Below are positions 56,534 through 57,642 of a stretch of 61,811 nt of DNA, piece after piece. The notes under the pieces are model-generated. The model did no database searches. It saw only the letters and a list, made by a program, of their open reading frames with translations, and was not told where the DNA came from. The first letter of the stretch is position 1. Each line of letters opens with the position of its first letter. The DNA lies in assembly GCA_016281275.1 (NCBI GenBank), contig JAEEIH010000121.1:1-61811 (forward strand), read 5' to 3'. The translations under genes and the position numbers were made by a program. This stretch comes from Lachnospiraceae bacterium (GTDB taxonomy: Bacteria; Bacillota; Clostridia; Lachnospirales; Lachnospiraceae).

Positions 56534-56562
56534 TTTACGTTATCAGACAAATAGCGTATAAT
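56534..56562 (+). promoter_or_regulatory. Internal sigma-70-like promoter candidate (TTTACG-17-TATAAT)
   Basis: In the 157-nt gap between the last baseplate gene and the STAS gene. It is one of the two largest intergenic gaps in the block, the other being 60 kb-side 59982-60160. Confidence 0.45.
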
Positions 56563-56639
56563 AACAAGAGTAGGACAGAGTGGCTCGTAAGGGCGTGGTA
56601 TTTGCCTGTAAATTATTGTTACATGGAAAAGGGGAAAAC

Positions 56640-56939
56640 ATGACAATCAGTGAAACAAGGAACGGAGAGAGCATTACGCTCTCGGTAGAAGGCAGAGTTG
56701 ACGCAACAACAAGCGCGCAGCTGCAAAACTCAATTTTGTTGGCATTTCAGAAAGTACGTGATCTTGTACTTGATTTTGAGCAGTGTGAATACGTTTCAAG
56801 CGCGGGCCTGAGAGCTTTGCTTATCGGTCAGAAGACGGCACAATCGAAGGGTGGGCAGATGAAACTGATTCATGTTGGAGATACGTTTATGTCGGTGCTG
56901 AAGCTTTCGGGTTTTGACAGCATTATTACTATCGAATGA
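56640..56939 (+). CDS. STAS-domain anti-sigma-factor antagonist (SpoIIAA/RsbV-like)
   Basis: 99 aa from ATG 56640 (track start GTG 56580). LSVEGRVDATTSAQLQN...LDFEQCEYVSSAGLRALLIG carries the conserved phosphorylatable Ser context (SSAGL). Confidence 0.8.
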   Translation: MTISETRNGESITLSVEGRVDATTSAQLQNSILLAFQKVRDLVLDFEQCEYVSSAGLRALLIGQKTAQSKGGQMKLIHVGDTFMSVLKLSGFDSIITIE

Positions 56940-56957
56940 CGGGACGGATGATCTCTT

Positions 56958-57386
56958 ATGGGAGGAATTATGGTCAAAGCAAGATTTGATGCATCGATCG
57001 ACGAGCTGTCGCGCGTTATCGATCTTGTCAACGAAACGATCTTAAAAGCGGGATGGAGCGATGCATTGTTGCCCGTTATGGACGTTGCCGTTGAGGAGAT
57101 ATTCGTCAATATTGCATCATATGCGTATCAGACATTGCCGGATGCCGATAAATATGCCGATATTACGATTGATGCCGAGGACGACCGGGTAAAGATCGTA
57201 TTTGAAGATGAGGGAATTGAATATAATCCGCTCTTAAGGGATGATCCCGACGTAACACTTCCTGCCGGGGAGAGGAAGATCGGCGGACTTGGAATATACA
57301 TGGTCAAGAAGAGTATGGATGGCGTAACATATGCTCGTACCGACGGAAAAAATGTTTTCACGATCATGAAGAAGAGGACGGACTGA
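56958..57386 (+). CDS. Anti-sigma-factor-type Ser kinase (SpoIIAB/RsbW-like HATPase_c)
   Basis: 142 aa. N-box-like VAVEEIFVNIASYAY, G1-like FEDEGIEYNP, G2 GGLGIYMVKKSMD. Small single-domain size is typical of RsbW. Confidence 0.75.
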   Translation: MGGIMVKARFDASIDELSRVIDLVNETILKAGWSDALLPVMDVAVEEIFVNIASYAYQTLPDADKYADITIDAEDDRVKIVFEDEGIEYNPLLRDDPDVTLPAGERKIGGLGIYMVKKSMDGVTYARTDGKNVFTIMKKRTD

Positions 57387-57399
57387 AAGGAAGTGCCTT

Positions 57400-57642
57400 A
57401 TGAGGATCGAGAAGGAACTTACGAGGTCAAACAAGAGAGCAGCTGAGGATAAAAAAGCGAAAAGGCGCAGGGATGATGCGCCTGAAGATGACACGATAGA
57501 ATATAAGCCGCACGAATGGCACTATTTAAATGAGGGAAGCGGTGTTTTTTCGTCTGTGATGGACAACGGGATCAACACGCAGGAAAGCGTGTTTGATAAA
57601 TATGCCGTATTTAAGACACGGAAACGGGAAGACAACTATTAA
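57400..57642 (+). CDS. Hypothetical 80-aa charged protein
   Basis: AAAGGA RBS 8 nt upstream. MRIEKELTRSNKRAAEDKKAKRRRDDAPEDD... No family recognised. Confidence 0.4.
   Translation: MRIEKELTRSNKRAAEDKKAKRRRDDAPEDDTIEYKPHEWHYLNEGSGVFSSVMDNGINTQESVFDKYAVFKTRKREDNY

Follow-up and report, generated by a model that had tools for sequence, protein, structure and literature searches.

Why should a gene pair of the anti-sigma type lie inside an operon for a contractile injection system (CIS) when no sigma factor gene is found nearby? The question is raised by a 61,811-nucleotide stretch of DNA from a Lachnospiraceae bacterium (contig JAEEIH010000121.1, positions 1 to 61,811; hereafter the window), in which a STAS protein, an RsbW/SpoIIAB-type serine kinase and an 80-aa protein are encoded between the gpI-like baseplate gene and the AAA+ ATPase gene of a CIS. 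This arrangement had been given in a preliminary description of the DNA, and Pfam and NCBIfam matches confirmed it (Table 1). The same description proposed that the kinase sequesters a CIS component. As stated, that proposal is unsupported, since comparison of related loci showed that the STAS protein, not the kinase, is the constant CIS-linked element. We see roughly an even chance that STAS is the CIS-proximal output of a sigma-independent partner switch, in which kinase and phosphatase would act as modifiers.

Conservation of the STAS gene in CIS loci

In the survey from CIS to STAS, the Baseplate_J protein and four orthologues were aligned and one genome per GTDB species was scanned; this probe gave 64 loci, with identities from 82% down to 24%, whose open reading frames (ORFs) were searched with hidden Markov models (HMMs) of the orthologues. 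About 19 kb was covered per locus, and a gene called absent is one not within that reach. The loci are phylogenetically non-independent; the evidence is gene order and sequence conservation. A 99-aa STAS gene lies directly after gpI in 44 of the 51 Clostridia CIS loci with at least 1 kb of sequence beyond gpI, and in 34/37 of those reaching 8 kb or more downstream. The gap between the two genes is 10-489 bp, usually below 180 bp. Their order persists down to about 31% Baseplate_J identity and spans Lachnospiraceae, Oscillospiraceae, Anaerotignum, Family XIII and Bengtsoniella; no STAS gene was found in the distant archaeal, acidobacterial and Flavobacterium CIS loci. Among related CIS loci, STAS is missing after gpI in L017, L037, L041, L047, L054, L056 and L064. 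The gene order is gpI-80aa-ATPase in L017 and gpI-CA-domain-SH3-80aa-ATPase in L041 (for the CA-domain and SH3 genes, see below). Some CIS loci do without STAS, and the protein is therefore dispensable for structure, as a regulator would be.

A similarity search with STAS returned a tight family, nearly all of whose members are exactly 99 aa long. Two abundant STAS relatives and one kinase relative, looked up independently, all lie in CIS loci. For the survey from STAS to CIS, metagenomes were scanned with the STAS alignment, 80 loci out of at least 516 relatives were kept, and upstream context was scored in the 71 that have at least 600 bp upstream. Sixty-nine of these 71 are CIS loci: gpI stands directly upstream of STAS in 64, four have the order gpI-x-x-PP2C-STAS-ABC-kinase-ATPase, and one has gpI nearby. 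The preliminary description had left room for a fortuitous insertion of the pair. The pair, above all its STAS member, recurs, and the two-way synteny counts (44/51; 69/71) rule out chance insertion.

Sequence conservation points the same way. In loci at middle distance from the window, identity to the window protein is 57-67% for STAS, 64-73% for the ATPase and about 50% for gp25, compared with 43-45% for Baseplate_J, 40-50% for the kinase and about 40% for gpI. The AAA+ ATPase is the best conserved protein of the locus, with 64-91% identity in relatives whose baseplate proteins share 40-45%. STAS is thus better conserved than the baseplate proteins.

The switch genes in the window and its relatives

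The window's STAS protein passes the cut-off of TIGR00377, the NCBIfam family 'anti-sigma factor antagonist'; it scores under the SpoIIAA equivalog cut-off, and far under the cut-off for MlaB. As in RsbV/RsbW-type partner switches, it is a single-domain protein with a serine at the N-terminus of helix 3. The phospho-acceptor context YVSSAGLRALL that had been read from the sequence held up on alignment: Ser54 (codon 56799-56801) aligns with the phospho-serine of SpoIIAA and TM1442, which together with RsbV are the solved relatives. An AlphaFold2 model (pLDDT 93.8) places Ser54 at the beginning of a helix (54-69), and matches SpoIIAA from the SpoIIAB complex and RsbV from the RsbW complex with TM-scores of 0.90-0.92; against MlaB in the MlaB-MlaF structures the TM-score is about 0.7. 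Ser54 does not vary among 39 distinct orthologues of CIS-linked STAS, including the ones whose loci have no kinase within reach, and the helix LRALLIGQKTAxSK is invariant or nearly so. We predict Ser54 to be the phospho-acceptor. No fusion of a CIS-type STAS to any CIS protein, which would lend Rosetta-stone support, was seen.

The kinase is a small HATPase_c_2 protein whose profile match covers 125/127 positions. Its ATP-binding boxes, noted in the preliminary description, are intact as read from the sequence: N box (E43..N47), G1 (D80xG82) and G2 (G105GLG108). Translation probably starts at ATG 56970, as suggested by a GGGAGG 6 nt upstream of it and by the start of most orthologues at the same site. 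The protein aligns with the RsbW of 6m36, scoring under the RsbW equivalog cut-off. Orthologues are 60-76% identical and the next relatives about 50%; in all kinase pairs dN (nonsynonymous divergence) is far below dS (synonymous divergence), a ratio that, with synonymous sites saturated, can be read only as far below 1. In a neighbour-joining tree the CIS-linked kinases fall into at least two clades, the window's being nearer to non-CIS kinases, a polyphyly that on about 130 residues is only suggestive. The nearest non-CIS paralogues (about 50%) are found in SpoIIE-kinase or kinase-HD-STAS/APH-STAS operons, without a sigma factor. Of the 67 STAS-bearing CIS loci that extend 5 kb or more downstream, 47 have the kinase, at positions ranging from adjoining STAS, whose stop codon it overlaps in some, to 7.4 kb beyond. 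Its architecture varies as well. L055 (16737-19307) encodes an 856-aa dCache-SpoIIE-HATPase_c_2 fusion and L018 (17726-19471) a 581-aa MatE-HATPase_c_2 fusion; in L062 (13523-15238) HATPase_c_2 is followed by a 436-aa C-terminal domain, which L090, L092 and L093 encode as an ORF of its own. Judged by eye, the 436-aa domain seems to resemble a carboxylate-amine ligase.

In the window the three genes between gpI and the ATPase gene are tightly packed, with gaps of 30, 13 and 11 bp from STAS through kinase and 80-aa gene to the ATPase. The promoter-like element TTTACG-17-TATAAT reported upstream of them was recovered at exactly the same position. It is the sole plus-strand promoter-like match in 55300-61811, where such matches across the region do not exceed chance (6 seen, 7.0 expected). 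TATAAT is invariant in 6 orthologous loci, the rest of the spacer being only 55% identical, and in the CIS-less relative L004 (see below) the element stands directly upstream of an orphan kinase gene. The consensus match and this conservation, including the persistence in L004, support a real promoter. No Rfam family matched in 56000-58000, giving no riboswitch or leader RNA in the gpI-STAS spacer, and a terminator scan found no plus-strand terminator between gpI and STAS.

Many relatives carry a longer set of switch genes. A dCache-SpoIIE phosphatase gene lies between STAS and kinase in many of them, and a PP2C is present in 27/67 STAS-bearing CIS loci; the full set reads STAS-MatE-x-dCache/SpoIIE-kinase between gpI and the ATPase. 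The dCache-SpoIIE protein is a membrane protein that resembles SiaA over its full length, with a SiaA score far below cut-off. Also encoded between STAS and kinase are amide-forming enzymes (GH3, GNAT, LPG_synthase_C-like, formyltransferase-like) and the MatE transporter. Such variable post-STAS cassettes occupy L018:13693-21597, L028:13636-17461, L079:10331-15863 and, outside any CIS, L009:1-7411, which holds a MatE-GH3-SpoIIE-kinase cassette and an ATP-grasp gene. From its gene content, the cassette looks like one for making, exporting and sensing a small molecule. In 64 related loci, a gene for an FtsE-like ABC ATPase (about 220 aa; TIGR02673 226 bits, just below cut-off) starts -7 to +27 bp from the STAS stop codon; no FtsX-like partner was seen near it in these loci. 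Neither the window nor its clade has an ABC ATPase gene beside STAS, as an MlaB-MlaF-type pair would. In the window's sub-clade (the window, L001/L016, L002/L003/L015, L006-L008 and L084) the switch consists of STAS and kinase only, and the window is a reduced, two-gene form of it. L001/L016 belongs to the MAG GCA_024693545.1.

The preliminary description had found no sigma factor and no PP2C phosphatase in the 61.8 kb, and our searches agreed. Pfam gave no sigma or SpoIIE match among the scanned ORFs, which were nearly all non-overlapping ORFs of at least 60 aa. Searches of all window ORFs of at least 45 aa with a PP2C HMM and RpoD motifs found nothing; the motifs were RpoD region 2 and 4 peptides, a test of low sensitivity, not least for extracytoplasmic function sigma factors. 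Of the parts of an RsbV/RsbW-type partner switch, the window therefore has the STAS protein and the kinase, and neither the PP2C nor a sigma factor or comparable target was found in it. The lack of PP2C is peculiar to the window's sub-lineage. With the same crude RpoD-motif search, no sigma factor was found beside the module in about 130 loci. A cognate sigma factor just downstream of the window, with a regulon unrelated to the CIS, had been named as an observation that would speak against a CIS target. In syntenic relatives the 7 kb past the window end hold genes for SH3_3, ABC-F, an amylase-like protein, DUF5721 and HSP90, and no sigma factor.

Two contigs from metagenome-assembled genomes (MAGs), L004 and L005, have the same chromosomal surroundings as the window: upstream they match the window itself (Pkinase-GGDEF gene, YhhN, UPRTase, DUF5688, AI-2E, DUF624, GlgB) and downstream its orthologous loci L001 and L002 (ABC-F, amylase-like gene, DUF5721, HSP90). 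No CIS, STAS, 80-aa, ATPase or CA-domain genes were found in either. Between GlgB and ABC-F they have an intact kinase orthologue (60-64% identity), an SH3 gene and, before ABC-F, one extra gene for a membrane protein (231/268 aa, 48% identical, no Pfam match) that is not in CIS-bearing relatives. For both the kinase and the SH3 gene of L004 the nearest counterparts are in L084, a contig of 6 kb on which the genes have the CIS-type order STAS-kinase-80-aa-ATPase-CA-domain-SH3. We read L004 and L005 as having probably lost the CIS and retained the kinase, in one loss or two. The reverse history, an ancestral kinase around which the CIS landed, is less likely because L004 keeps the STAS-type promoter before its kinase, because its kinase and SH3 genes are closest to the CIS-type L084, and because kinase and SH3 are CIS accessory genes in distant loci. 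A kinase kept in L004 and L005 has, or had, another partner.

Possible outputs of the switch

On the reading we favor, a CIS lineage spread across the Clostridia would have in STAS a regulatory subunit of its own, inherited vertically along with the machine. The adjacent RsbW-type kinase would phosphorylate Ser54, the membrane dCache-SpoIIE phosphatase of the relatives would strip the phosphate upon an external signal, and the phosphorylation state of STAS would decide CIS assembly, loading or firing. To this end STAS would bind a partner other than a sigma factor, itself a product of the locus; candidates are the membrane CA-domain protein, the baseplate, the AAA+ ATPase together with the 80-aa protein and, in relatives, the FtsE-like ATPase. 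In the window the switch would comprise its own promoter, STAS and kinase, and any phosphatase would be encoded elsewhere. We infer phosphorylation, the identity of the partner and the post-translational level of control from sequence and gene order. STAS is favored as the output because it is fixed, the kinase is variable, sensor PP2Cs and a PP2C-kinase fusion occur, no sigma factor was found, and STAS is dispensable for structure. The dCache-SpoIIE-kinase fusion of L055 points to a bifunctional modifier, which fits STAS as output, and loci without the kinase retain STAS with its serine intact.

Several observations weigh against this reading. Ser54 also has a structural role as helix N-cap, so that its conservation alone does not prove phosphorylation. 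Two of the 71 scored STAS loci are free-standing STAS-PP2C-...-kinase sets outside any CIS. Loci counted as lacking the kinase may carry one beyond the roughly 19 kb covered. With no PP2C in the window's own lineage, STAS there might stay phosphorylated all the time. Single-locus data are also compatible with a transcriptional target whose gene lies elsewhere, and the intact kinase of L004 and L005, with neither STAS nor CIS, fits a sequestering kinase equally well.

The sequestration model put forward in the preliminary description follows canonical RsbW/SpoIIAB logic, with which fold and motif matches agree: the kinase would be the effector holding a CIS component (ATPase or baseplate), and unphosphorylated STAS would free that component by partner switching. 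The window kinase ends 13 bp upstream of the 80-aa gene, with the ATPase gene next, and most STAS-bearing CIS loci (47/67) have a kinase. However, about 30% of the loci lack it, and in many loci that keep STAS it is absent or distant. It is mobile and in some loci fused to PP2C or MatE, CIS-linked kinases do not form one clade, the window kinase is equally close (about 50%) to non-CIS kinases, and purifying selection acts on the kinase even in loci stripped of every CIS gene. Judging from these comparative data, this model would be possible but fits them less well than a STAS output, and we consider it decidedly unlikely. For transcriptional control speak the orphan kinase of the CIS-less genomes, which suggests a target outside the CIS, the resemblance of STAS to SpoIIAA/RsbV and its passing an 'anti-sigma factor antagonist' cut-off. 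The pair could act on an unlinked sigma factor or other regulator that drives the CIS, or merely share the CIS operon. The CIS block of the window shows no transcription factor, so that a regulator has to lie at a distance. Against such transcriptional control stand the lack of a sigma factor beside the module in the roughly 130 loci of the crude search, although cognate sigma factors are normally co-operonic, and the same lack around the nearest non-CIS paralogues. STAS, moreover, follows the last baseplate gene, often by 4-40 bp, which implies that it is made with the machine and not before it. We judge a transcriptional output unlikely.

STAS might also work as MlaB does, tuning an FtsE-like ABC ATPase or, in the window, possibly the AAA+ ATPase, with phosphorylation secondary or absent. 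The FtsE-like genes abutting STAS in 64 loci, the MlaB-MlaF structures among the fold matches and an AAA ATPase gene directly after STAS in L033 speak for it. The window and its clade lack the ABC ATPase, however, the fold is far closer to SpoIIAA/RsbV than to MlaB, and acceptor serine, kinase and PP2C are widely kept; we regard this mode of action as very unlikely. That the pair simply hitch-hikes with no role in the CIS is most improbable. The region after STAS is highly variable in relatives and the two free-standing copies of the module exist, but the association holds in both directions (44/51 and 69/71), the post-gpI position is fixed to 31% Baseplate_J identity, and STAS outconserves structural genes.

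The best fold and sequence matches of the module are the SpoIIAA/SpoIIAB and RsbV/RsbW systems. It shares with SpoIIAA-SpoIIAB-SpoIIE and RsbV-RsbW-RsbU of Bacillus the STAS serine position, the GHKL kinase boxes and, in relatives, a SpoIIE-type PP2C; unlike them, it has no sigma factor nearby and no PP2C in the window, and is embedded between CIS baseplate and ATPase genes. STAS-type outputs acting on non-sigma targets are known from SiaABCD of Pseudomonas aeruginosa, SypE-SypA of Vibrio fischeri and HsbR-HsbA. As in SiaABCD, SypE-SypA and HsbA, there are a sensor PP2C (in relatives), a kinase and a small phosphorylatable protein, and no sigma factor; as in SypE, PP2C and kinase are fused, in one locus (L055). 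The proposed target differs, being a phage-tail-like machine instead of a diguanylate cyclase or a polysaccharide pathway, and we do not claim membership in those systems. The Bordetella BtrU-BtrW-BtrV set lies in a type III secretion system (T3SS) locus together with the genes for BtrA and the sigma factor BtrS, and is needed for secretion. The window's module is likewise a set of partner-switching genes within a secretion-machine locus; the machine is a CIS and not a T3SS, and sequence kinship is limited to the shared families. In the T6SS (type VI secretion system), the threonine phosphorylation pathway PpkA-PppA-Fha1 is an envelope-signal-driven reversible phospho-switch that gates assembly. 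The proposed reversible phospho-switch on a contractile machine resembles it in concept, whereas its components are a GHKL kinase and STAS as opposed to a Hanks kinase and FHA, in a CIS of Clostridia and not a T6SS of diderms.

To our knowledge, how contractile injection systems other than the T6SS decide on assembly or firing is largely unknown. In the literature that could be searched, we found no paper connecting CIS with STAS, an anti-sigma antagonist, a partner switch or SpoIIE. The module looks like a familiar signaling module on a new class of output, and STAS like an undescribed dedicated CIS regulator. A bolder extension, which we hold only tentatively and think doubtful, is that a small molecule, self-made or environmental, would be sensed extracellularly by the dCache-PP2C, that STAS would then be dephosphorylated, and that CIS assembly or firing would thereby be licensed post-translationally; it would parallel the T6SS pathway through independent evolution and be the first case of post-translational regulation in a CIS outside the T6SS.

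According to its text, the survey of extracellular contractile injection systems (eCIS) by Geller et al. 2021 (PMC8213781), the largest of its kind, names transcription factors (GerE/LuxR, BTAD, RfaH) as eCIS regulators and lists SpoIIE and HATPase_c_2 only as rare, unenriched 'cloud' domains. STAS is absent from that text; the supplement may hold an entry. Those regulators and the STAS gene alike are regulatory genes conserved beside a CIS operon, STAS differing in that it is no transcription factor. An entry of the supplement records a HATPase_c_2 gene, Amir_5398, in an eCIS locus of Actinosynnema mirum, and RsbW-like kinases may thus occur beside CIS outside Clostridia as well.

The STAS gene is fixed at one operon position in well over a hundred loci of abundant gut and rumen Clostridia, often with a sensor phosphatase alongside. 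Ser54, the kinase and the PP2C offer handles for mutation, and the STAS-less CIS loci are natural controls for what STAS adds. Candidate culturable carriers among the loci are Bengtsoniella intestinalis BP47G (L059, with the order gpI-STAS) and the Lachnospiraceae isolate B55_55_CC_H (L031). If STAS is the output, a secretion machine would join the targets of sigma-independent partner switches. The gene also singles out a CIS lineage of monoderm commensals that has received hardly any study and has membrane and cell-wall accessory genes of its own.

The CIS block and other genes of the window

The window is chromosomal, Lachnospiraceae-like DNA of 47% G+C with housekeeping genes (BipA, MetK, ProRS, UPRTase, GlgB), and by a Baseplate_J profile scan its nearest relatives are rumen and gut Lachnospiraceae MAGs. 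Its core block is a contractile injection system (Afp/PVC-like eCIS and relatives). It begins with a Pvc16_N cap gene, followed by genes for sheath (Phage_sheath_1/1C), tube (Phage_T4_gp19), DUF6760, two CIS_tube proteins and a hub-like protein, and continues with a VgrG-like OB protein (Phage_base_V), GPW_gp25, a large wedge protein, Baseplate_J, gpI, the switch genes and the AAA+ ATPase. A PHROGs search gave tail and baseplate matches alone and no capsid, portal or terminase, and a prophage reading was dropped.

Table 1. Coordinates of the switch genes, their CIS neighbors and comparison features in related loci (window positions unless a locus is named)
Feature	Location	Strand	Basis
Core CIS block	36343..59981	+	Pfam; PHROGs matches tail/baseplate only
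Baseplate_J-like (Cis11)	53245..55332	+	Pfam Baseplate_J 5e-8
gpI/Cis12-like baseplate gene, directly upstream of STAS	55349..56482	+	Tail_P2_I 5e-7; CIS12_fam 5e-24; TIGR02242 above cut-off
Sigma-70-like promoter element TTTACG-17-TATAAT	56534..56562	+	10/12 consensus positions; in 157-bp gpI-STAS spacer
STAS protein, 99 aa, single domain, SpoIIAA/RsbV type	56640..56939	+	Pfam STAS_2/STAS E 1e-13; TIGR00377 above cut-off
RsbW/SpoIIAB-type GHKL Ser kinase, 138 aa	56970..57386 (probable start; ORF opens 56958)	+	Pfam HATPase_c_2 E 5e-18
80-aa charged protein (SM)	57400..57642	+	No Pfam/NCBIfam match
AAA+ ATPase (Afp15/Cis15-like)	57654..59981	+	Pfam AAA 5e-28
Membrane protein, two transmembrane segments, histidine-kinase-type ATPase (CA) domain	60161..61051	+	Pfam HATPase_c 6e-20
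Membrane SH3_3 protein, cut by window end	61075..61811	+	HMM match 4e-86; Pfam SH3_3 in orthologues
Kinase/SH3 regions of the CIS-less relatives	L004:9440-11480; L005:9660-11400		
FtsE-like ABC ATPase, examples	L019:3757-4428; L024:11663-12367; L043:6670-7320		

The 80-aa protein has an N-terminal basic helix and a conserved tail, WHYxNE...GIN...FDKYAVFKT; its AlphaFold2 model, of low confidence (pLDDT 57), shows disorder after the basic helix, and a word-indexed homologue search returned 5 relatives only. In relatives its gene stays directly upstream of the AAA ATPase gene even where STAS and kinase lie elsewhere with oppositely oriented genes between, and it therefore belongs with the ATPase and not with the switch. 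Downstream of the ATPase, the CA-domain and SH3_3 genes are conserved accessory genes of these CIS loci, found on either strand. In the CA-domain protein, conservation across 35 orthologues reaches at least 90% in the N, G1 and G2 boxes, and the part ahead of the domain has no conserved column for a phospho-acceptor histidine. In L044 and L045, which lack the kinase, its gene comes right after STAS, so that the CA-domain protein might serve as another partner or kinase of STAS, bound to the membrane. The conservation of the membrane CA-domain and SH3_3 proteins hints at an envelope association of the CIS.

Between GlgB and the Pvc16-like gene (24862-36321) lie six large plus-strand ORFs (599, 277, 788, 404, 720 and 906 aa). 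Family searches gave next to nothing for these beyond one ORF with MORN repeats and one that weakly matches OEP; CIS effectors, fibers or anchoring proteins are possible identities. Right after GlgB, at 24280-24507 on the plus strand, is a small Cys-rich ORF (CxxCxxC type, about 76-89 aa) that is kept in L004 and L005 at 55-62% identity and shows where, on the left, the CIS insertion or deletion is bounded. At this site, choosing the longest ORF gives instead an antisense ORF, 24302-24538 on the minus strand. Further upstream, at 10984-15849 on the minus strand, a 1621-aa Hanks-type Ser/Thr kinase is fused to AAA_16, TPR, GAF and GGDEF domains; it is also present in the CIS-less relatives and therefore stands outside the CIS.

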